From contig JAZRUJ010000028.1 in the NCBI GenBank assembly GCA_045652445.1, forward strand, positions 3,478-67,477: 64,000 bases of DNA. Direction: 5' to 3'. The stretch is from Eubacteriales bacterium. Lineage in GTDB: Bacteria; Bacillota; Clostridia; Oscillospirales; UBA644. The position numbers and the translations under genes were made by a program. The first letter of the stretch is position 1, and every line of letters begins with the position of its first letter. This document shows, piece after piece, positions 17,391-59,715 of the stretch. The notes below the pieces were generated by a model. It saw nothing but the letters and a program-made list of their open reading frames with translations, had not been told where the DNA came from and made no database searches.

Positions 17391-17402
17391 CGAAATACAC
17401 AC

Positions 17403-17431
17403 TTGACATTTCTATTTTAATGTTGTATAAT
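17403..17431 (+). promoter_or_regulatory. Consensus sigma-A promoter of the DD-carboxypeptidase gene
   Basis: TTGACA, 17-nt spacer, TATAAT. Confidence 0.65.
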
Positions 17432-17469
17432 ATTCATACGAATATTAATTTTTTATGTAGGTACGGGTT

Positions 17470-32020: not shown

Positions 32021-32310
32021 GCTTTCGGATTAATTTTAAGTTTTATACGTGCCACAATGGGATTCGGCTTCGACGGATTGGCGTTTTCATTTTCCATAGA
32101 GCGAGCCTGTTGTTTAGAGGGGAAACAAGGAATTGGAAGAATTGTTCTTTCCGCCCTTTTATGCACGGCATGAATCCTCATATCCGTCCTTGGTACTATT
32201 GCTTGTTTTTTTATATGACAAATTACAAAAAAATACTACATATAGAACGTTGGAATAAAAAACAACACCACATCTTGTATTTCTGTCACAAAAAAATTAC
32301 ATCTGAACTC

Positions 32311-32339
32311 TTGACAAATGTCGTATTATGTTGTATAAT
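32311..32339 (+). promoter_or_regulatory. Consensus sigma-A promoter of the pflBA operon
   Basis: TTGACA, 17-nt spacer, TATAAT. Confidence 0.7.
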
Positions 32340-32351
32340 ATATATACACCT

Positions 32352-46409: not shown

Positions 46410-46520
46410 GAGAGCAAGGCAAATTTCTTAAAAATTTCACGGAAAAACAAAAAGGTTGAAAGTACAATTTAAAAAATTAAAAAAAATGATAATTCATACA
46501 AAAAAAATTAAAAACAACTC

Positions 46521-46549
46521 TTGACAAAAACCGAAAAAAGTTATATAAT
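46521..46549 (+). promoter_or_regulatory. Consensus sigma-A promoter of the CofE-like / GMPS-like pair
   Basis: TTGACA, 17-nt spacer, TATAAT. It is followed by a leader of about 105 nt containing the hairpin CACATTCT...AGAATGTG. Confidence 0.7.
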
Positions 46550-46661
46550 ATACTGTGTATTTCTTTGCACATTCTCTGTATGGTTTGAAAGAATGTGGGA
46601 AATAATCTTTATGCGTATCACCTTGTTTAATTTTCGATACAAGAAGGATGGGAAAAAATTT

Positions 46662-47864
46662 ATGAACAACAAAGAACGCAGAGTCGGAACCGTTTCCAGA
46701 GGCATCCGTTGCCCCATTATCCGGGAAGGTGACGATCTTGCCTCTCTCGTAACGGATAGCGTTTTGGAAGCCGCAGAAATCGAAGGATTCGAATTGCGAG
46801 ACAGAGACGTTATTGCTATGACCGAATCTATCGTTGCACGGGCACAGGGAAACTATGCAAGTGTAGACGATATTGCAGCTGATGTAAAAGCAAAATTGGG
46901 CGGGGAAACTGTTGGGGTCATCTTCCCCATTCTTTCCCGGAACCGGTTTGCCATCTGTCTGCGTGGGATCGCAAAGGGCGTTAAGAAAGTCGTTCTTATG
47001 CTCAGCTATCCCTCTGATGAAGTAGGAAATGAACTGGTCAGTTTGGACAAGATTGATGAAGCGGGTATTAACCCCTACAGCGACGTTCTCACCGAAGCTC
47101 AATATCGGGAACTGTTCGGCGAAAACAAACACGAATTTACCGGCGTAGACTACGTTCAGTACTACGGTGATTTGATTCGCGAAATGGGTGCGGAAGCTGA
47201 AATTATTTTTGCAAACCAAGCAAAAACCATCCTTAAATACACCGATTGCGTCCTGAACTGTGATATTCACACTCGTGCCCGCACCAAACGTATTCTGCTT
47301 GCCAATGGTGCAAAGGTTGTTTGCGGATTGGACGACATTTTGAACAAGCCTGTGAACGGAAGCGGATGCAACGAACGATACGGTCTTCTCGGCTCGAACA
47401 AGTCTACAGAAGATAAGATCAAACTGTTCCCCCGGGAATGCAAGGATTTGGTTTTGGATATTCAGGATCGTGTACAAAAAGCCACCGGAAAACACGTGGA
47501 AGTTATGGTCTACGGCGACGGTGCATTTAAAGATCCTCAAGGTAAAATTTGGGAATTGGCAGATCCCGTGGTCTCCCCTGCCTTTACCGACGGTTTGATT
47601 GGGACTCCCAACGAACTGAAGCTGAAATATCTTGCCGACAATGATTATAAGGATCTCTCCGGTGAAGAATTGAAAAAAGCCATTTCCGAAAGCATCAAGG
47701 CCAAAGACGGCAGCAGTTTGGTGGGCAACATGGCAGCACAAGGAACCACCCCCCGTCAACTGACTGACCTGATCGGTTCTCTCTGCGACCTGACCAGCGG
47801 TTCCGGAGACAAAGGGACTCCCGTTATTTTGGTTCAGGGTTATTTTGACAACTACACCAACTGA
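46662..47864 (+). CDS. CofE-like (F420-0:gamma-glutamyl ligase family) protein, about 400 aa with an insertion
   Basis: N-terminus VSRGIRCPIIREGDDLASLV...DRDVIAMTESIVARAQG and C-terminus GLLGSN...VMVYGDGAFKDP...GTPVILVQG follow the CofE fold pattern. The ATG at 46662 was chosen. The upstream part of the track ORF is promoter and leader. Confidence 0.6.
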   Translation: MNNKERRVGTVSRGIRCPIIREGDDLASLVTDSVLEAAEIEGFELRDRDVIAMTESIVARAQGNYASVDDIAADVKAKLGGETVGVIFPILSRNRFAICLRGIAKGVKKVVLMLSYPSDEVGNELVSLDKIDEAGINPYSDVLTEAQYRELFGENKHEFTGVDYVQYYGDLIREMGAEAEIIFANQAKTILKYTDCVLNCDIHTRARTKRILLANGAKVVCGLDDILNKPVNGSGCNERYGLLGSNKSTEDKIKLFPRECKDLVLDIQDRVQKATGKHVEVMVYGDGAFKDPQGKIWELADPVVSPAFTDGLIGTPNELKLKYLADNDYKDLSGEELKKAISESIKAKDGSSLVGNMAAQGTTPRQLTDLIGSLCDLTSGSGDKGTPVILVQGYFDNYTN

Positions 47865-47892
47865 TTGATTCGCACATAGGAAGGATAAAAAT

Positions 47893-48894
47893 ATGGATAC
47901 GAACAGACGTCCCGACACTATGCTCCGCATTACGACCAAAGAATTGGCAGATGCCTTTATTGCAGAACAGGTCAAGGAAATTCAAGCCCAAGTCGGCGAT
48001 AAAAAAGTACTTTTGGCCCTCTCCGGCGGGGTCGACTCTTCCGTCGTTGCAGCTCTTTTGATTAAAGCAATTGGAAAACAGTTAGTTTGCGTTCACGTAA
48101 ATCATGGTTTGATGCGTAAAAACGAGTCTGAAAACGTTATTAAACTGTTCCAGGACGGTTTGGATGCAAACTTGGTCTACGTCGATGCTACCGATCGGTT
48201 TTTAAACCTGTTGGCAAACGTTGCCGATCCCGAACAAAAACGGAAAATCATCGGGAAAGAATTTATTGAAGTTTTCGCAGACGAAGCCCGCAAATTGGAA
48301 GGCATTTCCTATCTTGCACAAGGCACCATTTACCCCGATATTTTGGAATCTATCAAACAAGCAGAAGGCAAAAAAGCCGTTAAATCCCATCACAACGTAG
48401 GCGGACTTCCCGAAGATCTGCAATTTGAATTGGTAGAACCCCTCAAATTGCTCTTTAAAGACGAAGTTCGTGTTGTTGGCGAAGCTCTCGGTCTGCCCCA
48501 TGCCATGGTATACCGTCAACCCTTCCCCGGTCCCGGTTTGGGTGTCCGTTGCTTGGGTGCCATCACCCGGGACAGACTCCACGCTCTGCGGGAAGCTGAC
48601 GCGATTTTAAGAGAAGAATTTGACAACTGCGGTCTTGCAGAAAAGGTTTGGCAGTATTTTGTTGTCGTTCCTGATATTAAGAGTGTAGGTGTCCGTGACG
48701 AAAGCCGTTACGAAGGTTGGCCCGCCATCATTCGTGCCGTCAACACCACCGATGCAATGTCCGCAACCATCGAAGAAATCCCCTACGAAGTTCTTCACAA
48801 AATCACCAATCGCATCACCCACGAAGTCGAAGGTATCAACCGCGTACTTATGGACCTCACTCCGAAGCCCGTCGGCACCATCGAGTGGGAATAA
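47893..48894 (+). CDS. GMP synthase ATP-pyrophosphatase plus dimerization domains only (no glutamine amidotransferase domain)
   Basis: PP-loop ALSGGVDSSV, KSHHNVGGLPE, RQPFPGPGLGVRCLG, and the canonical C-terminus PKPVGTIEWE. The protein is only 333 aa and begins at the GATase/ATP-PPase linker. The RBS AGGAAGGA precedes the ATG. Confidence 0.8.
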   Translation: MDTNRRPDTMLRITTKELADAFIAEQVKEIQAQVGDKKVLLALSGGVDSSVVAALLIKAIGKQLVCVHVNHGLMRKNESENVIKLFQDGLDANLVYVDATDRFLNLLANVADPEQKRKIIGKEFIEVFADEARKLEGISYLAQGTIYPDILESIKQAEGKKAVKSHHNVGGLPEDLQFELVEPLKLLFKDEVRVVGEALGLPHAMVYRQPFPGPGLGVRCLGAITRDRLHALREADAILREEFDNCGLAEKVWQYFVVVPDIKSVGVRDESRYEGWPAIIRAVNTTDAMSATIEEIPYEVLHKITNRITHEVEGINRVLMDLTPKPVGTIEWE

Positions 48895-48941
48895 GTTGGA
48901 TGTCTTAGCAAATCTTTTTTATCCTATTTAGGGTAAAATTC

Positions 48942-49121
48942 TTTATCCTTTGAATTAAAAAACATAAAGACCTTGTTCGAATGAACAAGGTCTTTTTTTC
49001 TATAAAACATTCTCGCAAAGAAATCCCTTTGAGTAGAAAAAGGAAGGACAAATCCTTCGTCTTTTTCCTCATCTTCTTTCTCACAAAAGAAGATAACATT
49101 TCTTTGATTTGTAACAATAAA
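48942..49121 (+). repeat. Left copy of an imperfect direct repeat (intergenic module: terminator plus GA/CT-rich box plus promoter-like region)
   Basis: Blocks shared with 55575-55729. TTTATCCTTTGAAT matches 14/15. AAAGACCTTGTTC-loop-GAACAAGGTCTTTTTT matches 31/34, with the stem identical and the loop different. CTCGCAAAG is shared. CCCTTTG..TAGAAAAAGGAAGGA matches 22/24. AACATT...TTGA..T..ACAATAAA is also shared. Confidence 0.7.
48969..48999 (+). terminator. Intrinsic terminator after the GMPS-like gene
   Basis: Stem GACCTTGTTC / GAACAAGGTC, loop GAAT, then T7. Confidence 0.85.
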
Positions 49122-49251
49122 TGCTTTGTATGTTGATATTTCCTTGGCATACAATCGCCCCCTTGATATGGTATATTCATTCTACCACATCAAGGGGGTT
49201 TTTGTCTATTGTCCGTTTTTAACGGATTTGTTCATTTGCGGGATGTTTATT

Positions 49252-50082
49252 TTAACTGTTCTTTCGAAATTGTAGGGGCGTCACGCCCATCTGCTTTTTA
49301 AAGGCACGGATGAAATAGTTATAATCGGGGAATCCCAGCTCGGCGGCAATCACCGTAATGGGTACATTGGTCTCCCGCAATGCCTCAAGAGACATTTGGA
49401 TTCGTTTATTCAAAATATACTTTCCGATGGTCGTGCCAAACTCTTCCTCGAACAGACGGTAAAGGGCATTCTTGGAAAGAAAGAATTTTCGACAAATCTC
49501 CTCCACGTACAACTTTTCCTTGATGTGTTCGAGAATATACTGCTCGATCTTGATGGAAAGCATACTGCGATGATGGCGAATCAGACTGTCGTCCCAAAAA
49601 TTCTTAATGAGGATCAAGAGAATTTTTTGAAGGGCGTTGAATTTCTCGGTGGACACCACGGGAATTTCCTCGTAAAGCTTGAGCATGGGCTCACGGTCAA
49701 GCTCGTAAATCTCAAGCGCCTTTCCCACCTTTTTTACCGACGAATAGGTCTCCCCTTCATCGCGAAACTGACCGATCTGCATAAAGGCGATCAACGTGTC
49801 CTCGTAGATTACAGGCATGACGGTTTCCATCAAACCTGCATGGCAAGTATAAGAGATCGTCGTTCTGCTTTTTGCCGCCTCCTTCATGTGCGCAAGATTG
49901 GAACGATTGCAATTCTTTTTACGCTCGCCATCCTCTCGGATTCTCATGCAATAATTCGAGTACGTAGGGGAGGTTGCCACTATATTCATCTCGGAATCGT
50001 AAAAGGTTACGGCGATTCCCGTGGCAATATAAAAGTCAAATAAAAGCCGCTTGATTTTTTCAATATTAAAAATGTAATTCAT
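49252..50082 (-). CDS. AraC-family transcriptional regulator with PocR-type sensory domain
   Basis: The N-terminal PocR-like region (FYIATGIAVTFYDSEMNIVA...YTCHAGLMETVMPV) is followed by a C-terminal AraC HTH pair. I set the start at MNYIFN (50082), 7 nt downstream of a consensus -10. Confidence 0.8.
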   Translation of the reverse strand: MNYIFNIEKIKRLLFDFYIATGIAVTFYDSEMNIVATSPTYSNYCMRIREDGERKKNCNRSNLAHMKEAAKSRTTISYTCHAGLMETVMPVIYEDTLIAFMQIGQFRDEGETYSSVKKVGKALEIYELDREPMLKLYEEIPVVSTEKFNALQKILLILIKNFWDDSLIRHHRSMLSIKIEQYILEHIKEKLYVEEICRKFFLSKNALYRLFEEEFGTTIGKYILNKRIQMSLEALRETNVPITVIAAELGFPDYNYFIRAFKKQMGVTPLQFRKNS

Positions 50083-50088
50083 ATTTTT

Positions 50089-50117
50089 ATTATAACACAA
50101 GCTCAAAAAAATGTCAA
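50089..50117 (-). promoter_or_regulatory. Consensus sigma-A promoter positioned to yield a leaderless araC/pocR mRNA
   Basis: On the minus strand: TTGACA, 17-nt spacer, TATAAT, AAAAAT, then ATG. No SD sequence is present. Confidence 0.55.
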
Positions 50118-50226
50118 TAGTTTTCTATTCGGGAAAATAATGCTACTTTTCAAAACAAAATAGGCTATCAATTTTTTTCTCATTTTGTTATGATATATTT
50201 AGTAAACAAAGATAGGAAGATTGATC

Positions 50227-50889
50227 ATGGAAATTCAAACGATTCTTCGCGCCGTTGCGAAAGCATACCGAGATTTTGCCCATGCCTTTTCTCCGGAAAA
50301 AAATACTGATGCTCTTTTTTTCGCCTTTGAGCATTCCCTTCTTGAAAGCCTTGGCGAATGCGAAATCGTATATGACTACATCTGGGGTCGGGATACTTTA
50401 AATGTGGACGGTGTAACCAAAAGTTATCTTCCGCGAACAGGCGACACGCTGATTATGGATATTAGCGTCGGCATTGACGATGTCTTTTGCGACGTATGCC
50501 GAACTTATTTTGTAGGAGAACCCTCCGAGAAGCAAAAACAAGCTTACCAAACGGTGTTGGATTCCCTTCGGGCAGGTCATCATGCCTTGCGTGCCGGTGC
50601 GAAAGCTTCCGAAATCTACCACGCGGTCAATTCCGTTTATCAAAAAGAGGGCAAGGAGTTGATCCATCACGCGGGACACAGAATTGGGGAAAAACCATTA
50701 CTGCAACCTCAATTTTTACCCGAAAACGATACCCCGCTCGCGGAAGGAAGCATCTACACGGTGGAATCGGGACTTTACGAGGACTTTGGCATTCGCCTTG
50801 AAAACGATTTTTTGATCGAAAAAACGGGAGCGGTTGATCTTTTCGAAGATCTTCTTCCCTTGGATATGAAGGAGTATATACTGAGATGA
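50227..50889 (+). CDS. M24-family (pita-bread fold) metallopeptidase/creatinase-like protein, catalytic domain only
   Basis: The metal-ligand pattern runs D(MDISV) D(CDVCRT) H(HAGHRIG) E(TVESG) E(RLEND). The RBS AGGAAG precedes the ATG at 50227. Confidence 0.65.
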   Translation: MEIQTILRAVAKAYRDFAHAFSPEKNTDALFFAFEHSLLESLGECEIVYDYIWGRDTLNVDGVTKSYLPRTGDTLIMDISVGIDDVFCDVCRTYFVGEPSEKQKQAYQTVLDSLRAGHHALRAGAKASEIYHAVNSVYQKEGKELIHHAGHRIGEKPLLQPQFLPENDTPLAEGSIYTVESGLYEDFGIRLENDFLIEKTGAVDLFEDLLPLDMKEYILR

Positions 50890-51707
50890 GTAAATTATTA
50901 ACAGGTCCTTTTGCCGTTTTGATGACCCCCTTTGTTGGAACAAAGATCGACGAGGAAGCCTTTGTAGCACAGATCAAGCTGGCAAACGAAAGCGACATTT
51001 CCGGATTTGTAACCAACGGAAGCACGGCAGAGTACATTCAGCTTTCTCTTGAAGAGCAGATGCGAGTATCCGAGCTGACCGCCAAGGAAAAAGCAAAGAA
51101 CAAAAAACTGATTGTCAGTGCATGCACAGGTAATCTTGCCGATACGGTTAAGCTTTGCCGTCACGCGGGAAGCATTGGTGCCGATGCGGTGCTGGTTTGT
51201 CCTCCCTACTATTTCAAGTATCCTACAAAGGAGCGGGAGGAGTATTTCAAGCGCGTGGCAGATCTCTCTCCCGTTCCTGTGGTCCTCTACAGCGTTCCAT
51301 TCTTCACGCAGGAGATTGAGCTGGACGTGGTATTCCGTCTTTTTGAGCATAAAAACATTGTGGGAATCAAAGACAGCAGTGCCAACATGAAACGTCTGTT
51401 GCACATGGCAGAGTATACCGACGGCAAGGACATTTCGATTATGACGGGTACGGACGATATTCTGATCTCCGCACTTGTAGGCGGTTGTGCAGGAAGCCTA
51501 ACGGCATTTGCCGCCATATATCCCCACCAGATCGCGGCACTTTACGCGGCGGTTGCCAAAGGAGATCTGAAAACGGCAAAGGAGATCCAATACTCGATGA
51601 TGCCCAAGCTTCGCGAGGCGGATTCCCAAACCTTCCCCAGAGGCTACAAAAAATTAATGGCAGAAGCCGTAGGCTTCGCCTTCGGTGACAAGGAGGTATC
51701 CGAGTGA
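50886..51707 (+). CDS. DapA/NAL-family class I aldolase (dihydrodipicolinate synthase family)
   Basis: GSTAEY motif and the Schiff-base lysine context (IVGIKDSS). Its ATG overlaps the upstream stop (ATGA). Confidence 0.8.
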   Translation: MSKLLTGPFAVLMTPFVGTKIDEEAFVAQIKLANESDISGFVTNGSTAEYIQLSLEEQMRVSELTAKEKAKNKKLIVSACTGNLADTVKLCRHAGSIGADAVLVCPPYYFKYPTKEREEYFKRVADLSPVPVVLYSVPFFTQEIELDVVFRLFEHKNIVGIKDSSANMKRLLHMAEYTDGKDISIMTGTDDILISALVGGCAGSLTAFAAIYPHQIAALYAAVAKGDLKTAKEIQYSMMPKLREADSQTFPRGYKKLMAEAVGFAFGDKEVSE

Positions 51708-52732
51708 AAGCAGCAGTATGGCTTGGTGATAATCAGGTAGAGGTACGAGAGGTGCCGATTCCCGAGATCGGCGAGGAAGAAGCGCTTCTCAAGGTACGTG
51801 CGGCAGGTGTTTGCTCCACTGACTTTCATATTATCTCGGGTAAATTAAAGATTGGAAAATCCCCCAACGTGCAGGGTCATGAGATCTGCGGTGAGGTGGT
51901 AAAGATCAATTCGAGAAGGACCGATATTCCCGTCGGTCAGCGTTGTGTGGTTTCCACCTCCATCGGTTGCGGCTACTGCGATGCCTGCCGTGAGGGAAAA
52001 CAGTACATCTGTAACGATAGCAGAGAGATCGGTTATTACCCACACAACGGCGGCTATGCCGAATACGTAAAGGTTCCCGTATCTGCCATCGTACCCATCT
52101 CGGACGCAGTCAGCGACAAGGCGGGCGCAATTCTTGAAAGCACGGTTTGTCCCACCGAATCCCTCATGCGAATCGGCGTTCCCTTTGGCGGAAGTGTTTT
52201 GGTTGCGGGAACGGGCCCTGCTGGTATTTCCTTTATTATTGTGGCTAAGCTAATGGGCGCGGACAAGGTGATCGTTCTGGTACGCGATGAGGAATCTACG
52301 AAGCGTGCCTTCGAATTCGGTGCGACGCATGTGGTAAATCTTAAGACCTCTCCCTCCCCTGTGGCAGAGGTTGAAGAGATCACAGGCGGCAAGAAAGCAG
52401 ATATTGTAATCGAGGCAACGGGTGCGAAGAGTGTGATTGAATCCATACCCGACTATGTAAAGAAGGGCGGGAACATCATTCTTTACGGAATCCCCTCGGC
52501 TGAAGAGCAGATCGTCTTCCCTGTTACCAAGATGATCGTTGAGGAGATCTCGGTACACGGTGCGGTAGGAAATACCAAGGCATGGTATCCGCTGGTTAAG
52601 ATGATCGAATGCGGCAAATTGGATCTGGATCGTCTTGTTACCCACGAGTTTTCGCTGGACGAGATCAATGATGCGTTTGATCTTTTCCGCAACAAGGATA
52701 AGACCCTGATTAAGGCAGTTATTAAGTTTTAA
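51704..52732 (+). CDS. Zinc-dependent medium-chain alcohol/polyol dehydrogenase
   Basis: GVCSTDFH, GHEICGEV, structural-zinc cysteines (CGYCDACREGKQYIC), and the Rossmann motif GTGPAG. The GTG start overlaps the upstream stop. Confidence 0.85.
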   Translation: MKAAVWLGDNQVEVREVPIPEIGEEEALLKVRAAGVCSTDFHIISGKLKIGKSPNVQGHEICGEVVKINSRRTDIPVGQRCVVSTSIGCGYCDACREGKQYICNDSREIGYYPHNGGYAEYVKVPVSAIVPISDAVSDKAGAILESTVCPTESLMRIGVPFGGSVLVAGTGPAGISFIIVAKLMGADKVIVLVRDEESTKRAFEFGATHVVNLKTSPSPVAEVEEITGGKKADIVIEATGAKSVIESIPDYVKKGGNIILYGIPSAEEQIVFPVTKMIVEEISVHGAVGNTKAWYPLVKMIECGKLDLDRLVTHEFSLDEINDAFDLFRNKDKTLIKAVIKF

Positions 52733-52759
52733 AATATAATTTTCAAAAGGAGAACGATT

Positions 52760-53878
52760 ATGAAAATCACAGACGTTGAGGTTGTTGTTGTCCGTCAGGA
52801 CGAGGTAAAAATGATCGGTGACGGAAGTCAGGATACTGCGGTTATTCTGGTTCACACCGACGAGGGTATTACGGGTATCGGTGAGGTTGACAGCTCTCCC
52901 GAGGTCGTGAAGGCGATCGTTGAGACCCCGGCTTCCCACGACCAGTGCAGAGGCCTCAAGGAGATCCTCATCGGCGAAGACCCCACCAACGTAGAATACC
53001 TCTGGCACAAAATGTACCACTACAGCTACTACTACACTCGCCGTTCTGTCGGTATCCACGCAATGAGCGGTATCGACATCGCCCTTTGGGATATCACGGG
53101 TAAGAAGTATGGTCTGCCCGTTTCCAAGCTGATCGGCGGTCGTTTCAGAGAAAAGATTCCTGCTTACTGCTCGGTTTTGATGCCCGGCACCAAGGAAGAA
53201 ATCGACGAGCTTGTAGCACACCATAAGGCAGACTGTAACTACCACGGTTATAAGTTCGGTTGGGGCGCTCTGGGCGAGAGCGAAGAAAAGGATATCAAGC
53301 TGGTTGAATATTGCCGCGAGGCAGTTGGAGACAACCGTCTAATGATCGACATCGGTATGAGATGGACCGATTATAAGTACGCACTCCGCGTTTCCAAAGA
53401 GTACGAAAAGCAGAAGGTCTACTGGTTGGAAGAGCCCTTCGCTCCCGACAGAACCCCTGATTTCGGCCGTCTTGCCGACAACATCAACATTTCTCTCGCA
53501 TCGGGCGAGGAATTTGGTACGATGTACGAGTTCCAGGATATGCTGGATAACGGCAGAGTGGACATCGTTCAGCCCGACATGAGCCGTTGCGGCGGTATCA
53601 CCATGGCGAAGAAGATCGCCGACATGGCTTACCTGCGTGGTAAGAAACTGATCCCTCACGCATTCAAGACGGGTATTTTGATTGGTGCGACGCTGCAGCT
53701 GATTGCGGCAATTCCCAACGCCGACATTCTTGAGTACTGTGCTCAGGAAACCGTTCTTTCGAAAAACCTCGTAAAACATCACTTCCAGCTCGATAAGGAT
53801 GGTTATGTAACCATTCCCGACCTCCCCGGTATCGGTGTTGAGCTGAACATGGATATTCTGAACAAGTATAGGAGATAA
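52760..53878 (+). CDS. Enolase-superfamily enzyme (mandelate racemase/muconate lactonizing family; probable sugar-acid dehydratase)
   Basis: N-terminal capping domain (MKITDVEVVVV...) and barrel metal ligands in the contexts MIDIG, WLEEP and SGEE. The length is 372 aa. Confidence 0.85.
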   Translation: MKITDVEVVVVRQDEVKMIGDGSQDTAVILVHTDEGITGIGEVDSSPEVVKAIVETPASHDQCRGLKEILIGEDPTNVEYLWHKMYHYSYYYTRRSVGIHAMSGIDIALWDITGKKYGLPVSKLIGGRFREKIPAYCSVLMPGTKEEIDELVAHHKADCNYHGYKFGWGALGESEEKDIKLVEYCREAVGDNRLMIDIGMRWTDYKYALRVSKEYEKQKVYWLEEPFAPDRTPDFGRLADNINISLASGEEFGTMYEFQDMLDNGRVDIVQPDMSRCGGITMAKKIADMAYLRGKKLIPHAFKTGILIGATLQLIAAIPNADILEYCAQETVLSKNLVKHHFQLDKDGYVTIPDLPGIGVELNMDILNKYRR

Positions 53879-53881
53879 GTT

Positions 53882-54598
53882 ATGAACCTTTTAGCTGTAG
53901 GATGTCATCCCGACGATCTGGAGATCAATGCGGGCGGTACACTTGCAAAATGCGCTAAGCGCGGCGACAAGGTAACCATGTGTGTTCTTGGAAACGGAAG
54001 TGCAGGTCATAAGGTTTACTCCAAGGAGGAAATCGCGGCAATCCGTTTGCAGGAAGCAACGAACTCCGCTGCCATCATCGGTGCGGAATACATCAACCTT
54101 GGTGTAGACGATATGTTCCTTCGTCAGAACTACGATCTGCTCGTCAAACGTCTCTCCGACGTAATTCGCAAAGTCCGTCCCGACTTCATCATCACACACG
54201 GGCCTGACGAGTATATGGTAGACCACAGCATCACCAATACCATCACCTTTGATGCCACCATGGCAGCTACCGTTGACCACTACCCTACCGATCATCCCGA
54301 ATATCCCGTTTTTGAAAAATTCACCCCAATTTTCCAAATGGAAAACACCATGCTGATCAACTCCTTCCCCGAGATTTTTGTGGATATTTCCGATACGGTT
54401 GATACGAAGGTTGAGATGTTCAAGCAGCACAAGAGCCAACACGATTGGCTTCAGGCACACGACGGTAAGGATGTGGTAGAGGACATGCTTGCCTGTGCCA
54501 GACTGAGAGGCGTTCAATGTAACACCCGTTACGTAGAGGGCTTTACGATTCTCAAGCAGTCTCACCATCTGCCCTTGAAGAGATACCTACCCGAATGA
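53882..54598 (+). CDS. PIG-L/LmbE-family N-acetyl-sugar deacetylase
   Basis: Signature AVGCHPDDLEINAGGTLAK and a later HxDH-type region (ITHGPDEYMVDHS). Confidence 0.8.
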   Translation: MNLLAVGCHPDDLEINAGGTLAKCAKRGDKVTMCVLGNGSAGHKVYSKEEIAAIRLQEATNSAAIIGAEYINLGVDDMFLRQNYDLLVKRLSDVIRKVRPDFIITHGPDEYMVDHSITNTITFDATMAATVDHYPTDHPEYPVFEKFTPIFQMENTMLINSFPEIFVDISDTVDTKVEMFKQHKSQHDWLQAHDGKDVVEDMLACARLRGVQCNTRYVEGFTILKQSHHLPLKRYLPE

Positions 54599-55512
54599 TC
54601 GTAAAAGAGTCAAAATTCAAGAACGTCCTTGCCTTTGAGCTGATCACAAAAAGCAACACGGCAAAGGTCGTTCCCTTGGAGGGCGGAAAGATCGCGTCCT
54701 TCAAGGATCGAAAAAGCGGAAAGGAATATCTCCTGCAAAATCCGTCCGAGAAGTTTTTACATACGGGATTTGACGACGACTTTGTAGATGGTGAGTGTTG
54801 CGGCTTTGACGACATGTTTCCCACCATCGACCCTGTTTCGGTGACCTATCCCGATGGAACAATCATGGAGTATCCCGATCATGGTGAGGTCGCCCGTGTT
54901 TCCTTTTCCTATGAGGCTACCGAAGATTCCCTCACCCTTCACTTCTCATCCGCACGGTTTGGTTATGAGTATACCAAGACCTTTCGGGAGAGTGCGGAGG
55001 GTGGCTTACAGGTGGATTATCGAATTGAAAACCGCTCGGATTACGATCTGGACGTTTTATGGGCAGCCCATTGTCTCGTAAATGCCGAGCAAGGCGGACA
55101 AGTTCTCGTTCCCTTCGGTGAGGGAGAGGACGTGGATATCATGTTCGACACAGTGTCCCGCTTTACACCCGGTGCGAGGATTCCCTTCCGCGAGGAATAT
55201 TTTTTGACCACGTGGACGGTAGGTGCTCCCGAATGCAGAAAATTTTATTTTCCAAGAAAAGCTCCCGAGGGTTATCTGGGGTACCGCTATCCCTCAGGGG
55301 ACGTGTTGATGATGGAATTTGATCCTGATCGGATTTCCTGCATCGGAGTATGGGAAAACTTTGCCCGCTTCAACGGTGCCTACTGTATTGGCTTTGAGCC
55401 GAGCTCTGTAGGTTACGATACGGTTAAGAACGCCGAAAAATACGGGCAAAAGAGACCTATTAAAAAGGGTGAGAGTCTGGAATTTTTCATTCGGCTTACC
55501 GTAAAAAAATAA
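54595..55512 (+). CDS. Aldose-1-epimerase-like (galactose mutarotase fold) protein
   Basis: 305 aa of beta-rich sequence with an N-terminal pattern of mutarotase-like proteins (ELITKSNTAKVVPLEGGKIASFKD...EYLLQNP). The start overlaps the upstream stop (ATGA). The assignment is tentative. Confidence 0.5.
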   Translation: MIVKESKFKNVLAFELITKSNTAKVVPLEGGKIASFKDRKSGKEYLLQNPSEKFLHTGFDDDFVDGECCGFDDMFPTIDPVSVTYPDGTIMEYPDHGEVARVSFSYEATEDSLTLHFSSARFGYEYTKTFRESAEGGLQVDYRIENRSDYDLDVLWAAHCLVNAEQGGQVLVPFGEGEDVDIMFDTVSRFTPGARIPFREEYFLTTWTVGAPECRKFYFPRKAPEGYLGYRYPSGDVLMMEFDPDRISCIGVWENFARFNGAYCIGFEPSSVGYDTVKNAEKYGQKRPIKKGESLEFFIRLTVKK

Positions 55513-55518
55513 AAAACG

Positions 55519-55567
55519 CCTCAGGCGGTGTGACTAAAAAACTCACACCCCTGAGGTGTACTTTTTT
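55519..55567 (+). terminator. Intrinsic terminator of the island operon
   Basis: Long stem CCTCAGGcGGTGTGA / TCACACCcCTGAGG followed by TGTACTTTTTT. Confidence 0.8.
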
Positions 55568-55574
55568 AAAAATT

Positions 55575-55729
55575 TTTATCCTTTGAATACAAAGACCTTG
55601 TTCATTTGAACAAGGTCTTTTTTCTTTCTTCATTTCTTCTTTTTCTCTTCCCTCGGCCTCGCAAAGCTCGGTCTCGGTCTCCCCTTTGCATAGAAAAAGG
55701 AAGGAAAAACATTGACATTTACAATAAAA
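55575..55729 (+). repeat. Right copy of the imperfect direct repeat, including a second redundant terminator hairpin at 55594-55623
   Basis: See the left copy. It contains GACCTTGTTC-ATTT-GAACAAGGTC plus T6, only about 27 nt after the island's own terminator. Confidence 0.7.
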
Positions 55730-55740
55730 CATGATATAAT
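55712..55740 (+). promoter_or_regulatory. Consensus sigma-A promoter of the LysR gene
   Basis: TTGACA, 17-nt spacer, TATAAT. A degenerate homolog of this sequence occurs in the left repeat copy at about 49103-49135. Confidence 0.7.
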
Positions 55741-55770
55741 GGACTGGATTACAAAAAGGCGGTGAGAGTT

Positions 55771-56691
55771 ATGAATCTTTTGCACATGAAGCATGCGTTG
55801 GAGGTAGCAAAAGCCGGTTCTCTGAGTAAAGCTTCGGAGGTTTTACTGATTGCGGCCCCGAACATTAGCCGTTCCATTAAGGAGCTGGAAACTGATCTTG
55901 GAATTACGATCTTTGACCGCACGCAAAACGGAATGAAGCTAACCCCTGACGGAGAAGAATTTATTAACTTTGCCAAGGGAATTCTTGGACAAATTGATGA
56001 GGTTGAAAAATTTTATAAAGCCGGTGCCCCGAAAAAACAAAAGTTTTCTATTTCCGTCCCCCGTGCCTGCTATATTTCCGAAGCCTTTGCCAATTTTTCC
56101 AGATCGCTAACAAAAGATTCTGCCGAGATTTTTTATAAAGAAACGAACTCCCAACGCACCATACGCAATATGGTAGAACACGATTATAAACTAGGCATTA
56201 TCCGATATGCGGAAAATTATGACAAATATTTCAAATCTATGCTGGAAGAAAAGGGCTTTCAGTACGAATTGGTCACAGAATTTACCTACTCCTTGATCAT
56301 GAGTGCAGACAACCCTTTGGCAAAGAAAGAGCAAATTACGTTTGAAGATCTGACCAATTATATTGAAATAGCACATGCGGATCCCTACGTTCCCTCTATG
56401 CCTCTTTCCAAAGTGATAAAGGAAGAACTGCCCGATAATATTGACCGAAGAATTTTTATTTTTGAACGTGCAAGTCAATTTGATTTGTTATCTTTGAATC
56501 CCGAAACCTTTATGTGGGTCTCCTCTGCATCGAAGAGTTTACTGGATCGGTATAATTTAGTTTTGAAAAAATGTGATGACAATAAAAAAATATACAAAGA
56601 CGTTTTGATTTACAAAAAGGGGTACGAATTATCAAAACTTGACCGTCAGTTTATTGCAAACCTGTGCGAATCGAAGCGAAAGCATATATAA
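55771..56691 (+). CDS. LysR-family transcriptional regulator
   Basis: N-terminal HTH (MNLLHMKHALEVAKAGSLSKASEVLLIAAPNISRSIKELE) and a C-terminal substrate-binding domain. Confidence 0.85.
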   Translation: MNLLHMKHALEVAKAGSLSKASEVLLIAAPNISRSIKELETDLGITIFDRTQNGMKLTPDGEEFINFAKGILGQIDEVEKFYKAGAPKKQKFSISVPRACYISEAFANFSRSLTKDSAEIFYKETNSQRTIRNMVEHDYKLGIIRYAENYDKYFKSMLEEKGFQYELVTEFTYSLIMSADNPLAKKEQITFEDLTNYIEIAHADPYVPSMPLSKVIKEELPDNIDRRIFIFERASQFDLLSLNPETFMWVSSASKSLLDRYNLVLKKCDDNKKIYKDVLIYKKGYELSKLDRQFIANLCESKRKHI

Positions 56692-56818: not shown

Positions 56819-56991
56819 ATGGAGGTGCCGGTGGTGGAAAAGGCTCGATTTCCAAGGCAACACTGGGAAGACTTCTCATGTATCTAAATTTTTTAAGAGA
56901 CCTGCCGCCGGATAAAGCACCGCACATTTCCGCAACGTCCATCGCTGCACACTTCCACTTGGGAGAAGTTCAAGTTCGAAAAATTGTGTAA
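56819..56991 (+). pseudogene. rex: Frameshifted and 3'-truncated remnant of the redox-sensing repressor gene rex (N-terminal winged helix only)
   Basis: The frame from 56842 reads GSISKATLGRLLMYLNFLRDLPPDKAPHISATSIAAHFHLGEVQVRKIV*. This parallels the Rex N-terminus (..IS.AT..RLP.Y.R.L..L.....ISS.ELA...G....QVRKD). The only ATG (56819, MEVPVVEK) is in another frame. It joins the Rex frame if one A is added to the A4 run at 56838-41. The Rossmann domain is absent. Confidence 0.6.
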
Positions 56992-57012: not shown

Positions 57013-59715
57013 ATGGAGACTCAAAATCGTTTCATCGTAGACAGTGTGGAAAAGCTGCAGGAAGCTATTGCGCGTACCAGAGCAGCTCAAAAAGTTTTTG
57101 CAACCTACACGCAGGAACAGGTAGATAAAATCTTTTTGGCTGCCGCTTCCGCCGCAAATAAGGCTCGAATTCCTCTTGCAAAAATGGCAGTAGAAGAAAC
57201 CGGCATGGGCGTGGTAGAAGATAAGGTTATTAAAAACAACTATGCCGCCGAATATATCTATAACGCCTACAAAGACACAAAAACCTGCGGTGTAATCGAA
57301 GAAGACAAGGCGTTCGGGATTCAGAAAATCGCGGAACCCATCGGGGTAATTGCAGCGGTTATTCCTACTACAAACCCCACTTCCACCGCAATTTTCAAGT
57401 GCCTTTTAGCTTTGAAAACTCGTAACGCCATTATTATCTCTCCTCACCCCCGTGCAAAGAACTGCACCATCGCTGCCGCGAAGTTGATTTTGGATGCCGC
57501 AGTTGCCGCAGGTGCTCCCGAAGGGATTATTGACTGGATTGACGTCCCCTCTTTGGATATGACCAACACCGTTATGAAAGAAGCTGATATCATTCTTGCC
57601 ACCGGTGGTCCCGGTATGGTTAAGGCAGCTTATTCTTCCGGTAAGCCTGCTCTGGGCGTCGGTGCCGGGAACACTCCCGCCATTATTGACGATTCTGCCG
57701 ACATTTTGTTAGCAGTCAACTCCATTATTCATTCTAAAACCTTTGATAACGGTATGATCTGTGCTTCCGAACAGTCTGTTCTGGTTCTGGAAAACATTTA
57801 TGATGCTGTTAAGACCGAATTTGCCACCCGTGGCTGCTACTTCTTGAACAGCGAAGAAACGGAAAAAGTTCGCAAAACCATTATCATTAACGGTGCGTTG
57901 AATGCCAAAATCGTTGGACAGAAAGCCGCTAAAATTGCGGAACTTTCCGGGTTAACCGTTCCTGCTGACACCAAGATATTGATCGGCGAAGTGGAAAGTG
58001 TAGAACTATCTGAAGAATTTGCTCATGAAAAATTGTCTCCCGTTTTGGCAATGTATAAAGTTAAGACCTTTGAAGAAGCTTTGGACAAAGCCGACAAATT
58101 GGTTGCTGACGGTGGTTACGGTCACACCGCTTCCGTATACCTGAACGACGTTACTGCTCGGGAAAAACTGTCTGCATTCGCAGCTCGCATGAAGACCTGC
58201 CGTATTCTCGTGAATACTCCCTCTTCTCACGGTGGTATCGGAGACTTGTACAACTTCAAATTGGCTCCTTCCCTGACTTTGGGTTGTGGCTCTTGGGGTG
58301 GTAACTCTGTCTCCGAAAACGTTGGAGTGAAACATCTTCTCAACATCAAAACCGTTGCCGAAAGAAGGGAAAATATGCTTTGGTTCCGAGCACCTGAAAA
58401 AGTTTATATTAAGAAAGGCTGCCTGCCCGTTGCCCTCGACGAACTGAAGACGGTCCGCGGCTCCAAAAAAGCTTTCATTGTTACCGATACGTTCCTGTAT
58501 CAGAACGGTTACACCAAGCCCATCACCGATAAATTGGACGAAATGGGCATTACCCATGCCACATTCTTCAACGTTCAGCCGGACCCCACCTTGGCAAACG
58601 CCATCGAAGGGGCAGCACAAATGCGTGCCTTCCAGCCCGATACCATCATCGCTCTGGGCGGTGGTTCTGCTATGGACGCAGCCAAGATTATGTGGGTTCT
58701 TTACGAACATCCCGATGCTGACTTCATGGATATGGCAATGCGGTTTATCGATATCCGCAAACGCGTTTATACCTTCCCCAAACTGGGTGAAAAGGCATAC
58801 TTTATTGCCATCCCCACCTCTGCCGGTACCGGTTCGGAAGTAACTCCTTTCGCCGTTATTACCGACGAAAAGACCGGTGTAAAATATCCCTTGGCAGATT
58901 ATGAACTTTTGCCCAACATGGCAATTATTGACACGGATTTCCACATGTCTGCCCCCAAAGGCTTAACCGCCGCTTCCGGGATTGACGCCGTCACCCACGC
59001 AGTGGAAGCTTATGCAGCAATGCTTGCAACCGATTACACCGACGGTCTGGCTCTCCAAGCTCTGAAGAATATCTTTAAATATCTGCCCCGTGCTTATGAA
59101 AACGGTCAAACCGACGTGGAAGCCCGTGAAAAGATGGCAAACGCAGCTACGATGGCCGGTATGGCATTCGCCAATGCTTTCTTGGGAATTTGCCACTCTA
59201 TGGCTCACAAGTTGGGTGCATTCCATCATCTGCCCCACGGCGTTGCCAATGCCCTGATGATTGAACAGGTTATTCGTTTCAACGCCTCTGAAGCTCCCGT
59301 TAAGATGGGTACTTTCTCTCAATACGATCATCCTCACACCTTGGCTCGGTATGCTGAAATTGCAGATTACCTGGGTCTGGGCGGAAAAAATGATGAAGAA
59401 AAGATGGAAAACCTTATCAAAGCCATCAATGACCTGAAAGCCAAGGTCGGCATCAAGGAAACCATCCGTGAATACGGCATCGGAGAACAAGACTTCCTGG
59501 ACCGTTTGGACGACATGGTAGAACAAGCCTTTGACGATCAGTGCACCGGAGCAAACCCCCGTTATCCCCTGATGAGCGAACTGAAGCAAATGTATCTGAA
59601 TGCTTATTACGGCACCGCGTATACCGATGCAAAAATGCCCACTGCCGTAGATATTGCTACCGAAGGCACTGCCGACAAGGGAAAAGCATCCTACCGCAAG
59701 GGCAAGAAAGCGTAA
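57013..59715 (+). CDS. adhE: Bifunctional acetaldehyde-CoA/alcohol dehydrogenase
   Basis: 900 aa. An N-terminal ALDH domain (catalytic Cys context MICASEQS) is fused to a C-terminal iron-ADH domain (GGGSAMDAAK, HxxxH region CHSMAHKLG). The RBS is AGGAGGA. Confidence 0.95.
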   Translation: METQNRFIVDSVEKLQEAIARTRAAQKVFATYTQEQVDKIFLAAASAANKARIPLAKMAVEETGMGVVEDKVIKNNYAAEYIYNAYKDTKTCGVIEEDKAFGIQKIAEPIGVIAAVIPTTNPTSTAIFKCLLALKTRNAIIISPHPRAKNCTIAAAKLILDAAVAAGAPEGIIDWIDVPSLDMTNTVMKEADIILATGGPGMVKAAYSSGKPALGVGAGNTPAIIDDSADILLAVNSIIHSKTFDNGMICASEQSVLVLENIYDAVKTEFATRGCYFLNSEETEKVRKTIIINGALNAKIVGQKAAKIAELSGLTVPADTKILIGEVESVELSEEFAHEKLSPVLAMYKVKTFEEALDKADKLVADGGYGHTASVYLNDVTAREKLSAFAARMKTCRILVNTPSSHGGIGDLYNFKLAPSLTLGCGSWGGNSVSENVGVKHLLNIKTVAERRENMLWFRAPEKVYIKKGCLPVALDELKTVRGSKKAFIVTDTFLYQNGYTKPITDKLDEMGITHATFFNVQPDPTLANAIEGAAQMRAFQPDTIIALGGGSAMDAAKIMWVLYEHPDADFMDMAMRFIDIRKRVYTFPKLGEKAYFIAIPTSAGTGSEVTPFAVITDEKTGVKYPLADYELLPNMAIIDTDFHMSAPKGLTAASGIDAVTHAVEAYAAMLATDYTDGLALQALKNIFKYLPRAYENGQTDVEAREKMANAATMAGMAFANAFLGICHSMAHKLGAFHHLPHGVANALMIEQVIRFNASEAPVKMGTFSQYDHPHTLARYAEIADYLGLGGKNDEEKMENLIKAINDLKAKVGIKETIREYGIGEQDFLDRLDDMVEQAFDDQCTGANPRYPLMSELKQMYLNAYYGTAYTDAKMPTAVDIATEGTADKGKASYRKGKKA

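Follow-up and report, generated by a model that had tools for sequence, protein, structure and literature searches.

Organisation of the locus

The window, i.e. the whole 64-kb stretch of DNA that was analysed, contains a guaA-like gene, a seven-gene island and a gene for a LysR-family regulator, the island standing between two direct copies (L on the left, R on the right) of one intergenic module. The guaA-like (GMPS-like) gene (47893-48894, plus strand) encodes a PP-loop ATP-pyrophosphatase with a GMP synthase C-terminal domain (Pfam GMP_synt_C, 2e-34, plus NAD_synthase). This 333-aa, PP-loop/GMP_synt_C-only protein is conserved across species at 87-91% in amino acids, and its gene is paired with a CofE-like gene.

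The island occupies about 6.5 kb between the repeats, with a core at 49250-55516. Its first gene (49252-50106, minus strand) encodes a PocR-sensor/AraC-family regulator (Pfam PocR, 1.9e-35, and HTH_18) and is divergent from a six-gene operon (50221-55512, plus strand) for an M24 peptidase-like protein, a DHDPS-family aldolase, a Zn-dependent dehydrogenase, an enolase-superfamily (MR/MLE) protein, a PIG-L/LmbE deacetylase and a 305-aa protein, in the relatives of which PF14486 was found. At 0.49-0.52, the GC content of the operon exceeds the window mean of 0.44. All seven genes are regulatory or metabolic by Pfam, and the predicted function of the operon is probably that of an (amino-)sugar or sugar-acid catabolic cassette. 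The operon ends in its own terminator, a long hairpin (55518-55563) with a T-run that also forms the right end of the island (55518-55570, plus strand; fold -30 kcal/mol, z = -7.8).

On the left, a unique segment of 197 nt (49053-49249, plus strand), without homologue anywhere searched, lies between L and the stop codon of the PocR gene. Within it are the inverted repeat ATCTTCTTT/AAAGAAGAT, a weak hairpin (49043-49058) and, on the plus strand, a strong hairpin of terminator type with TTTTT after it (49157-49199; fold -30.4 kcal/mol, z = -6.7). On the right, the LysR-family gene (55771-56691, plus strand; Pfam HTH_1) is the first of a separate conserved block (lysR ... rex-adhE), and is preceded by a sigma-70-type promoter (55712-55740, plus strand) of the form TTGACA-17-TATAAT, with TG.

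The repeat pair

L (48934-49052, plus strand) comprises the second of two TATCC boxes, a terminator hairpin, the CTCGCAAAG box and the CCCTTTG..TAGAAAAAGGAAGGA box. In R (55567-55709, plus strand) the second TATCC box and the hairpin are followed by a pyrimidine-rich insertion, CTCGCAAAG, a CTCGGT x2 expansion and CCCTTTG..TAGAAAAAGGAAGGA. Three elements are thus shared, colinear and in the same orientation: the TTTATCCTTTGAAT box, the terminator hairpin and the CTCGCAAAG...CCCTTTG..TAGAAAAAGGAAGGA box. A repeat search returned three colinear families (D17, D13 and D19) with L-to-R spacings of 6633, 6625 and 6657, and the window contains precisely two instances each of CCCTTTGNNTAGAAAAAGGAAGGA and of the hairpin AAAGACCTTGTTC-N4-GAACAAGGTCTTT, the expected number being 0 in both cases. 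Smith-Waterman alignment of the two intergenic regions scored 78, compared with a mean of 22.4 for 1000 dinucleotide shuffles (sd 3.2, maximum 39). Nor is the similarity confined to the hairpin, since the parts 5' and 3' of it each separately exceeded all 1000 shuffles. The direct-repeat pair around the island is genuine and far beyond chance.

The two copies are far from identical. The Smith-Waterman blocks agree at 95 of 102 aligned bases, and with MAFFT the identity is 79%, from 88 matches and 23 mismatches, with 40 gap columns besides. The divergence is 0.07-0.21 over a repeat of 120-140 bp with 3-9 indels, and the longest identical run is 17 nt. The 5' edge of R overlaps the 3' end of the island by 4 nt (TAAA), and the significant repeat stops about 3 nt 5' of the lysR -35 hexamer, leaving the promoter outside.

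A sequence-only reading of this DNA had counted a fourth shared element, the lysR promoter region, described as intact on the right and degenerate on the left. The right-hand promoter does match the consensus at 12 of 12 positions. For the supposed left counterpart the score is 19, whereas the shuffles average 20 and 1220 of 2000 do equally well or better, so that this element is at chance level and only the other three stand. The hairpins share an identical stem of 13 bp, rather than the 10 bp first given, and differ in their loops as had been described, GAAT in L and ATTT in R. The L hairpin with its T-run (48966-49002, plus strand), identified by terminator scan and fold, serves the guaA-like gene as its terminator. 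The scan matched it on both strands and, given the upstream A-run (8-nt TAAAAAAC, missing in R), the L terminator looks bidirectional. The R hairpin and T-run (55591-55626, plus strand) begin about 30 nt 3' of the operon's own strong terminator, and the earlier description of R as a redundant second terminator holds.

The flank of the guaA-like gene in related genomes

The 3' flank of the guaA-like gene carries a conserved motif, a direct pair of TATCCT boxes 24 nt apart (48917-48955, plus strand; boxes at 48920-48925 and 48944-48949), of which the second alone falls inside the repeat; L begins 40 nt 3' of the stop codon. The same pair, with AAAAGG between the boxes, is found at seven loci of relatives (L003, L064, L009, L065, L047, L080 and L020). 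In at least seven other species the order of the flank is the box pair, 24 nt apart, and then GACCTTG...CAAGGTC with a T-run. A search of 101 loci for the motif TATCYTSAAAARG gave 10 matches, eight of them in the guaA-like flank or its duplicates. The orthologous flanks show L to be the guaA-like gene's own 3' flank, in its native position, and R to be a displaced duplicate of it.

What follows this flank is highly changeable. At one locus aligned base by base (L100), homology ends at the guaA-like stop codon (48894), and the region 3' of the gene is hypervariable, 104 of 129 ORFs in 46 relatives being singletons. Furthermore, duplication of the flank recurs. In L009, a second copy of about 260 bp of flank lies 3.5 kb downstream (98% identical in the first 119 nt, 83% thereafter), and the two enclose PfkB-AraC and nucleoside-hydrolase genes; in L035, 65-bp repeats (92%) surround 8.6 kb; and in L080 and L020 the flank forms tandem units of about 617-625 nt, a purely non-coding duplication. 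Integrase tblastn and partial Pfam scans revealed no recombinase in the inserts of L009 and L035. The left edge of the duplication varies by species (+3, +8, +12 or +40 nt after the stop codon) and does not point to a fixed position of crossover.

Moreover, seven relatives carry tyrosine integrases with an Arm-DNA-binding domain at the 3' end of the guaA-like gene, located 95-130 nt (L043, L076), 1.2-1.4 kb (L007, L027) or 0.2-2.5 kb (L013, L026, L062) after its stop codon. These integrase-bearing relatives have a different class of flank, made up of a hairpin and boxes with an 11-nt period. Among the TATCC-box loci, a Pfam scan of a subset of ten downstream ORFs in four relatives found no integrase. 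In the window itself, tblastn with three relatives' integrases as queries gave no match, and Pfam detected no recombinase among the nine genes from guaA-like to lysR, in agreement with what had been read from the sequence.

The island and lysR in other contexts

The earlier view of the AraC-regulated operon as an insertion is borne out by the presence of the island core, without the module, in three other genomic contexts (L097/L098, L099 and L101), at 87-88% and 96% nucleotide identity. The entire core 49250-55516 is present in L097 at 86.7% identity, and homology with L097 and L101 is lost at 49250. L099, which is 96% identical, aligns to 53804-55570 of the window and stops at 55570, where R starts; it shows compensatory stem changes in the operon terminator and lacks the module 3' of the island. 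Its divergence from the window island at fourfold-degenerate sites is 0.11. No mobility genes were found at the borders of the core in L097 and L101, and no mobility-gene remnants in 49053-55566 of the window. The sequence comparisons support the segment between the repeats being a transferable cassette.

As regards the right-hand side, LysR relatives with 91-94% amino-acid identity have varied upstream cargo, often a DUF6809-61aa-TnpV cassette. Neither lysR nor the island was found 3' of the guaA-like gene in any of 81 relatives (up to 10 kb fetched; 46 with at least 2 kb), and the two genes were adjacent in none of the 81 GMPS-side or 8 lysR-side relatives. Likewise, an empty site, in which the guaA-like gene would be followed directly by lysR as the earlier reading supposed, was not seen in any relative; the lysR relatives reach just 75-79% DNA identity, and at such distances this result is uninformative rather than negative. 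As lysR adjoins the TnpV cassette at a variable junction in relatives, it may be another accreted segment and not the original neighbour.

Origin of the bracket

The recurrence of flank duplication, together with the integrases present at this site in seven relatives, argues for site-specific (att-type) integration at the 3' end of guaA, with the island as a decayed, integrase-less islet resembling the CIMEs described below; we give this about an even chance. The mechanism, which had been left open, is in this way narrowed. The guaA 3' end would have received an element, or several accreted in a chain, that brought along a flank version of its own (the TATCC box, the guaA-like terminator hairpin and 50-85 nt beyond). 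The 6.5-kb PocR/AraC-regulated cassette would thereby have been inserted into the guaA-like flank, recombination leaving flank on both sides, and attL and attR would have become the imperfect direct repeats. Genes for integrase and transfer could have been lost later, or never have been present in cis. We infer that a site-specific recombinase made this insertion and that the guaA-like gene and lysR were adjacent before it: R adjoins the lysR promoter and L the GMPS-like gene, so that under any duplicative insertion both were once neighbours. One insertion event can explain both divergence values, 0.07-0.21 between L and R and 0.11 between the island and its copy in L099.

Classical att cores are short and identical. 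Against an att-type origin stand the long, imperfect L and R with their 17-nt longest identical run; the duplication edge that differs between species; the lack of integrase in the ten ORFs scanned in TATCC-class relatives, integrase carriers belonging to the other flank class; and the failure of the integrase tblastn and the nine-gene Pfam scan to reveal a recombinase. In addition, L099 without the module gives no direct sign that the island carried its own flank copy, and no excised circle or empty site was seen. Some of these observations would suit homologous or homeologous recombination with no site-specific recombinase involved, which we consider possible though unlikely. Circular or linear DNA with the cassette and a related guaA flank could have entered by a RecA-dependent single (Campbell-type) crossover, or unequal crossing-over between flank copies could have shuffled cassettes; the direct repeats would then be the recombined homology and could drive island loss too. 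Repeats of 120-260 bp, long and imperfect, resemble homology tracts more than att cores, the tandem non-coding units of L080 and L020 are what unequal crossing-over would be expected to produce, no recombinase was detected in the window, L009 or L035, and the conserved guaA-like gene is a possible homology anchor. However, 17 nt of identity is short for efficient RecA action, unless divergence came later, L099 gives no sign of an island travelling with a flank copy, and the clustering of integrases at exactly this site in relatives is left unexplained.

The sequence-only reading itself proposed that insertion of the operon, an ancient event, duplicated the whole ancestral region from the GMPS terminator to the lysR promoter, and that the left promoter decayed afterwards. 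The contiguity of R with the lysR promoter and of L with the GMPS-like gene accords with this, and the L/R divergence, close to that of the island from its nearest copy at neutral sites, is compatible with one old event. The duplicated part includes the guaA-like flank with its terminator but not, detectably, the lysR promoter, the left similarity being at chance level; since, in addition, the GMPS-lysR pair appears on neither side in relatives and lysR lies there at a variable junction beside the TnpV cassette, we regard this version as improbable. Still less credible, at a very low probability, is a dispersed intergenic family (a REP- or MITE-like terminator cassette) whose copies flank the island by chance. 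The source genome was inspected over 64 kb only, and unrelated metagenomic organisms do have the hairpin by itself as a terminator, but those matches are limited to the stem, without the boxes. Within the window the module occurs twice and no more, and across 1.16 Mb of related loci no copy was found besides the guaA flank and its local duplicates; L is orthologous to a flank tied to a single gene across species, and the start of R coincides precisely with the island boundary. The source is apparently a MAG contig, and the relatives are MAGs, so a chimera of two strain variants joined through the shared flank, present in no single cell, was also considered. It is the least probable of all: identical L/R runs of at most 17 nt are below assembler k-mers, the structure requires no join inside the repeat, and analogous brackets occur in the independent assemblies L009, L035 and L080.

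Comparison with known elements

CIMEs (cis-mobilizable elements), as defined in PMC5704250, are decayed remnants of ICEs or IMEs that keep attL and attR after the loss of integration and transfer genes; those related to ICESt1 and ICESt3 in Streptococcus thermophilus, at the 3' end of fda, are an example. The islet resembles them in lying between direct repeats that derive from the 3' flank of a conserved housekeeping gene, L and R being putative att sites; in having no detected integrase, excisionase or transfer genes inside (Pfam on seven genes; tblastn with three integrases); in its adaptive (catabolic) cargo; in a site which integrase-bearing elements may use in related genomes; and in the signs of tandem accretion at that site in L009 and L080. 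It differs in its repeats (120-140 bp, 79-93% identical, several indels, no short identical core), in a TATCC-box flank class without known cognate integrase, and in its much smaller size (6.5 kb). As to an attB, integrases do lie 3' of the orthologous gene in 7 relatives, but with a different flank class. Descent from an ICE or IME is not attested by mobility remnants or by a related intact element; as neither the island nor the L097 and L101 borders hold such remnants, the islet is called "CIME-like" rather than a CIME in the strict sense.

Tyr-recombinase IMEs target the guaA 3' end (PMC5704250), and Tn5801 is found there with imperfect direct repeats of 11 bp (PMC4844618). As in these guaA-targeting elements, insertion is at a GMP-synthase gene, in its 3' end or flank, and the insert lies between imperfect direct repeats with the gene intact. 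Unlike the islet, those elements carry a tyrosine integrase beside guaA and short repeats; moreover, the gene here encodes a GMP_synt_C-only protein with a CofE-like partner, and the repeat starts 40 nt after its stop codon.

Campbell-type integration, known from suicide-plasmid single crossovers and amplifiable units, also leaves the inserted DNA between two copies of a 100-300 bp homology tract, repeats that can later mediate deletion or amplification. Natural cases normally have near-identical repeats right after the event, whereas those of the islet have low identity and lie at a site that is also an integrase hot spot. Two other kinds of structure were rejected. Target-site duplications made by transposases are short (2-14 bp) and exact, and accompany terminal inverted repeats and a transposase, neither of which was seen with this imperfect duplication of 120-140 bp. 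Integron arrays combine an IntI integrase and attI with cassettes that lack promoters and have an imperfect palindrome, attC, at their ends; here the integrase tblastn gave no match, the seven-gene insert has its own regulator and promoters, and the hairpins of the window are GC-rich stems with T-runs, i.e. terminators.

All in all, the gene island appears as a fairly ordinary genomic islet at a known integration hot spot.

Genes and terminators of the locus

The island, a PocR/AraC-regulated cassette probably for sugar catabolism, is made up of the gene for the PocR/AraC regulator (49252-50106, minus strand) and a six-gene operon (50221-55512, plus strand) coding for an M24 peptidase-like protein, a DHDPS-family aldolase, a Zn dehydrogenase, an MR/MLE enolase-superfamily enzyme, a PIG-L deacetylase and a 305-aa protein, in relatives of which PF14486 is found. 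The GC content of the operon deviates mildly (0.49-0.52 vs 0.44 for the window). The operon ends in a strong terminator of its own (55518-55563; -30 kcal/mol, z = -7.8), and the hairpin of the right-hand repeat, about 30 nt further on, is indeed the redundant second terminator described in the sequence-only reading.

To the left of the island lie plus-strand genes for a CofE-like ligase (46521-47864) and a PP-loop/GMP_synt_C protein (47893-48894), the relatives of which are named 'glutamine-hydrolyzing GMP synthase' in their sources; the latter gene is called guaA-like here. Both genes (46521-48894, the second coding for 333 aa) are conserved as an adjacent pair in 37 of the 81 related loci, the hosts being organisms not expected to make F420 (CofE is the F420-0:gamma-glutamyl ligase family), and a database protein of 435 aa (P0243) carries extra domains on the same scaffold. 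Three near-consensus promoters (32288-32342, 46498-46552 and 17399-17439), one of them upstream of the CofE-like gene, share ACTCTTGACA...TGTTGTATAATAT and are 73-76% identical over 41-55 nt, which may be just strong-promoter convergence.

To the right, a perfect consensus promoter precedes a LysR-family regulator gene (55771-56691, plus strand), followed by the gene for a 900-aa protein (57013-59715, plus strand), whose 900-aa counterpart in the related locus L082 has Aldedh and Fe-ADH domains (AdhE-type). Between the two lies a truncated rex (56826-56990), of which about the first 50 codons are left (ISKATLGRLLMYLNFLRDLPPDKAPHISATSIAAHFHLGEVQVRKIV, then a stop); a related locus, L096, codes for a full Rex of 208 aa. 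In L082, L081 and L092 extra Fe-ADH, DHODB-type and GltD-type genes stand between lysR and rex. The truncation and these extra genes thus indicate that the lysR side of the junction has also been remodelled.

The repeat pair

A repeat search of the window revealed colinear similarity, in direct orientation, between a left copy (L, 48934-49052), downstream of the guaA-like gene, and a right copy (R, 55567-55709), upstream of lysR. Three repeat families, D17 (48934-48963 and 55567-55596), D13 (48961-48998 and 55586-55623) and D19 (49025-49052 and 55682-55709), have nearly the same distance between their two members. The 30-nt hairpin AAAGACCTTGTTC-N4-GAACAAGGTCTTT and the box CCCTTTGNNTAGAAAAAGGAAGGA each occur exactly twice in the 64-kb window, against an expectation of 0. 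Gapped local alignment of both intergenic regions gave a score of 78, compared with 22.4 ± 3.2 (maximum 39) in 1000 dinucleotide shuffles, which bears out the proposal that a direct repeat brackets the island. The similarity is not confined to the hairpin: the segments up- and downstream of it, tested singly, each beat 1000 of 1000 shuffles, and it therefore extends beyond the terminator. Identity reaches 95 of 102 positions in the local-alignment blocks; a MAFFT alignment of L and R has 88 matching and 23 mismatching columns, plus 40 gap columns that make up three long indels, with longest identical runs of 14, 13, 17 and 15 nt.

The sequence-only reading was right about the loops of the hairpin (GAAT in L, ATTT in R), and its stem of 10 bp measures 13 bp in both copies. 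It had also counted a degenerate lysR promoter region on the left as a fourth element of the duplicated unit, and this part has to be given up: the left segment 49053-49251 aligns to the lysR promoter region with a top score of 19, against a shuffle mean of 20, and 1220 of 2000 shuffles do as well. The repeat thus comprises only 48934-49052 and 55567-55709, its end being some 3 nt short of the -35 hexamer of lysR. The junctions are placed precisely at 48934, 49052/49053, 55570/55571 and 55709.

The loops (48979-48982 and 55604-55607) differ at three of four positions, and ATTT is one mismatch away from ATTC, the reverse complement of GAAT. A loop flip by template switching inside a perfect palindrome would account for an unchanged stem with a changed loop, which, with 4 nt only, is merely suggestive. 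An 8-nt A-rich insertion (TAAAAAAC, 48956-48965), present in L and not in R, lies just 5' of the hairpin and provides it with a minus-strand T-run, so that L could end transcription of the guaA-like gene and also of the PocR gene converging on it; the R hairpin is unidirectional.

An Rfam search of 48500-56000 gave no family at threshold, and the sub-threshold matches, PyrR and L10 leader only, arise because terminators drive them. RNAalifold on the flank from 8 species left the box region essentially without consensus structure (-1 kcal/mol). Two minus-strand ORFs across the repeats (91 and 78 aa) were rejected, their translations being unrelated and of low complexity.

The island as a transferable cassette

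The island core (49250-55516), bounded by the stop codons of the PocR gene and of the last operon gene, has a counterpart in the ENA contig L097 (with L098), with 86.7% identity over 6278 nt; there it is neighboured by a Wzy_C-type gene on one side and an ABC-2 transporter on the other. In L101, whose copy is 88% identical and served to assess the left island boundary, similarity is likewise lost at the PocR stop codon, beyond which a flank unlike the others begins. The copy in L099 is 96% identical and retains the operon terminator, with changes in the stem that compensate each other; its homology ends at 55570/55571, R begins at 55567, and the overlap between island end and R start is TAAA. 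The L099 island comes without the repeat module. For the last island gene, copies of at least 90% identity are P0366 (on an ENA contig of 18.7 kb), P0368 (11 kb), P0364 (4 kb) and P0365. Among the relatives listed, none matches the host backbone at more than 75-79% DNA identity, so that the cassette is more closely related to DNA elsewhere than the backbone around it is, which fits horizontal exchange.

Native status of the left copy

The relatives of the guaA-like gene comprised 81 loci, namely 80 GTDB species (the best 80 of roughly 600 or more loci) and L100, the nearest ENA contig found. When the first 150 nt past the stop codon were compared in all of them, a flank like that of the window was found in 7 species (L003, L064, L009, L065, L047, L080 and L020), in which TATCCT(C) occurs twice in direct orientation at a distance of about 24 nt, with AAAAGG in between, ahead of a hairpin with a T-run, whose stem is GACCTTG...CAAGGTC in L003, L064, L047, L080 and L020. 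The motif TATCYTSAAAARG has 10 matches in 101 loci, 8 of them in flanks of this TATCC class or their local duplicates; a box match in L051, inside a coding region, was set aside as chance. In the window, the left side holds both boxes (48920-48925 and 48944-48949) and R begins between the box positions, so that L is in place by descent and R is a displaced duplicate. Thus the central claim, a flank duplicated around an inserted cassette, is upheld, with L native and R at the island end.

A dispersed intergenic repeat family could also have supplied both copies. Against it stand the descent of L as the native guaA-like flank, with R its displaced copy, and the outcome of a two-copy profile search, which found no further module in either the window or the related loci (1.16 Mb); the extra matches of the profile are hairpin-only, in sequences fetched by the hairpin pattern itself. 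Seven metagenomic hairpin matches were discarded as unrelated terminators, with no module.

A second class of 3' flank, seen in the first ~110 nt past the stop in L001, L004, L007, L026, L030, L034, L036, L038, L043, L045, L061, L062, L070, L072-L076, L078 and L100, has a hairpin GAAAACCC...GGGTTTTC followed by two tandem 7-8-mers with a period of exactly 11 nt. Their sequence varies from species to species (TGATACC, TGGCAAC, TGACAAC, TGCAACAC, TGTGACTC, TGATAGCA, TGATAAG and CGAAAAGTACA), and at some of these loci a tyrosine integrase with an Arm-DNA-binding domain directly adjoins. Such pairs probably represent arm-type sites for the integrases of elements inserted at the guaA-like gene.

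Recurrent insertion next to the guaA-like gene

Each relative was searched for direct repeats of its own flank. In L009 about 260 bp of flank recur 3.5 kb downstream (98% identity over the first 119 nt, 83% beyond), around PfkB-AraC, a nucleoside hydrolase and a DnaB_C fragment, and beyond the distal copy lie a further PocR/AraC regulator and a sugar operon. In L035 a 65-bp flank repeat (92% identity) surrounds 8.6 kb coding for a kinase and LRR, TPR and SPFH proteins. No recombinase was found in either insert. L080 and L020 carry tandem non-coding flank units of 617-625 nt (L080 11003-12240, L020 7780-8560). In each unit a box pair and the hairpin are accompanied by A-rich sequence that repeats with an 11-nt period (AGAAAAATAACAGAAAAAAT...), and no ORF reaches 110 aa. 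The left edge of the duplication varies by species (+3, +8, +12 and +40 nt past the stop codon), no fixed crossover point thus being evident.

Downstream gene content is highly variable: in the 46 relatives for which 2 kb or more past the gene were available, 104 of 129 ORFs are singletons. In 7 relatives (L007, L013, L026, L027, L043, L062 and L076) the downstream genes include tyrosine integrases with Arm-DNA-binding domains, and in 2 of the 7 the integrase gene ends 95-130 nt past the guaA-like stop codon. Elements with a Tyr recombinase are known to insert at the guaA 3' end (table in PMC5704250), among them Tn5801 (PMC4844618). In both L001 (11209-11829) and L066 a gene for ToxN (type III toxin-antitoxin) follows the guaA-like gene at a distance of 200 nt, a further sign of defence and mobile cargo landing there.

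Within the downstream sequence fetched, neither lysR nor the island follows the guaA-like gene in any of the 81 relatives. An empty site was found neither via the guaA-like gene, the 80 GTDB species and L100 being too distant, nor via lysR, whose relatives (91-94% aa, 75-77% DNA) are homologous from ~55750 only. In L100, aligned base by base, homology stops at the guaA-like stop codon, the protein being 98% identical over its first 200 residues and the DNA only 78.6%. Upstream of lysR, its relatives carry a DUF6809-61aa-TnpV cassette, TetR-linked cargo or APH-like genes, and none has the module; this junction is a second variable spot. The TnpV cassette stands directly 5' of lysR in several relatives of 91-93% aa identity (loci L081 3591-4460, L082 4051-4920, L083, L092 and L093), with further cargo between it and lysR in L081. 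Adjacency of the guaA-like gene and lysR before the insertion would follow solely from R touching the lysR promoter and L touching the guaA-like gene.

Origin of the duplication

The most likely mechanism, proposed here with moderate confidence, is that DNA integrated (att-type) or accreted at the hot spot formed by the guaA 3' end, after which the mobility genes would have been lost to leave a CIME-like islet; CIMEs are remnants that lack an integrase and retain both attL and attR (PMC5704250). No integrase turned up in the window when three such proteins of relatives were used in tblastn, and Pfam scanning of 10 ORFs downstream of TATCC-class flanks (L047, L064, L020 and L080) found no recombinase. 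The main rival, RecA-mediated recombination between flank copies, appears rather unlikely. A further reading, which we regard as improbable, gives the TATCC box pair, 24 nt apart, and the hairpin the role of a dedicated landing pad, used in Oscillospiraceae and Acutalibacteraceae of the ruminant gut, where integrase-less catabolic cassettes would repeatedly be captured and stacked by a putative recombinase acting in trans, the pad being regenerated each time; such a chromosomal cassette platform would differ from integrons as well as from classical ICE/IME accretion.

As regards timing, fourfold-degenerate divergence between the island of the window and its L099 copy is 26/231 = 0.11, and L and R differ at 0.07-0.21 of aligned positions, plus indels. 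Both values being similar, one insertion at about the time when the two island copies separated suffices. Alternatively, the flank copies may already have been different when joined, one coming from the host and the other from an incoming element.

Implications

The 3' flank of the guaA-like gene emerges as a recurrent site of insertion or accretion for carbohydrate-utilisation cassettes in uncultured ruminant-gut Clostridia. The precise junctions can be used for finding excision products or empty sites in metagenomic reads, and the TATCC box pair with its hairpin is a sequence signature for locating further islets of this kind. If no trans-acting recombinase recognises this signature, the case would add just another decayed island to a hot spot already well known; if one does, it would represent a simple system of gene capture without resident mobility genes.
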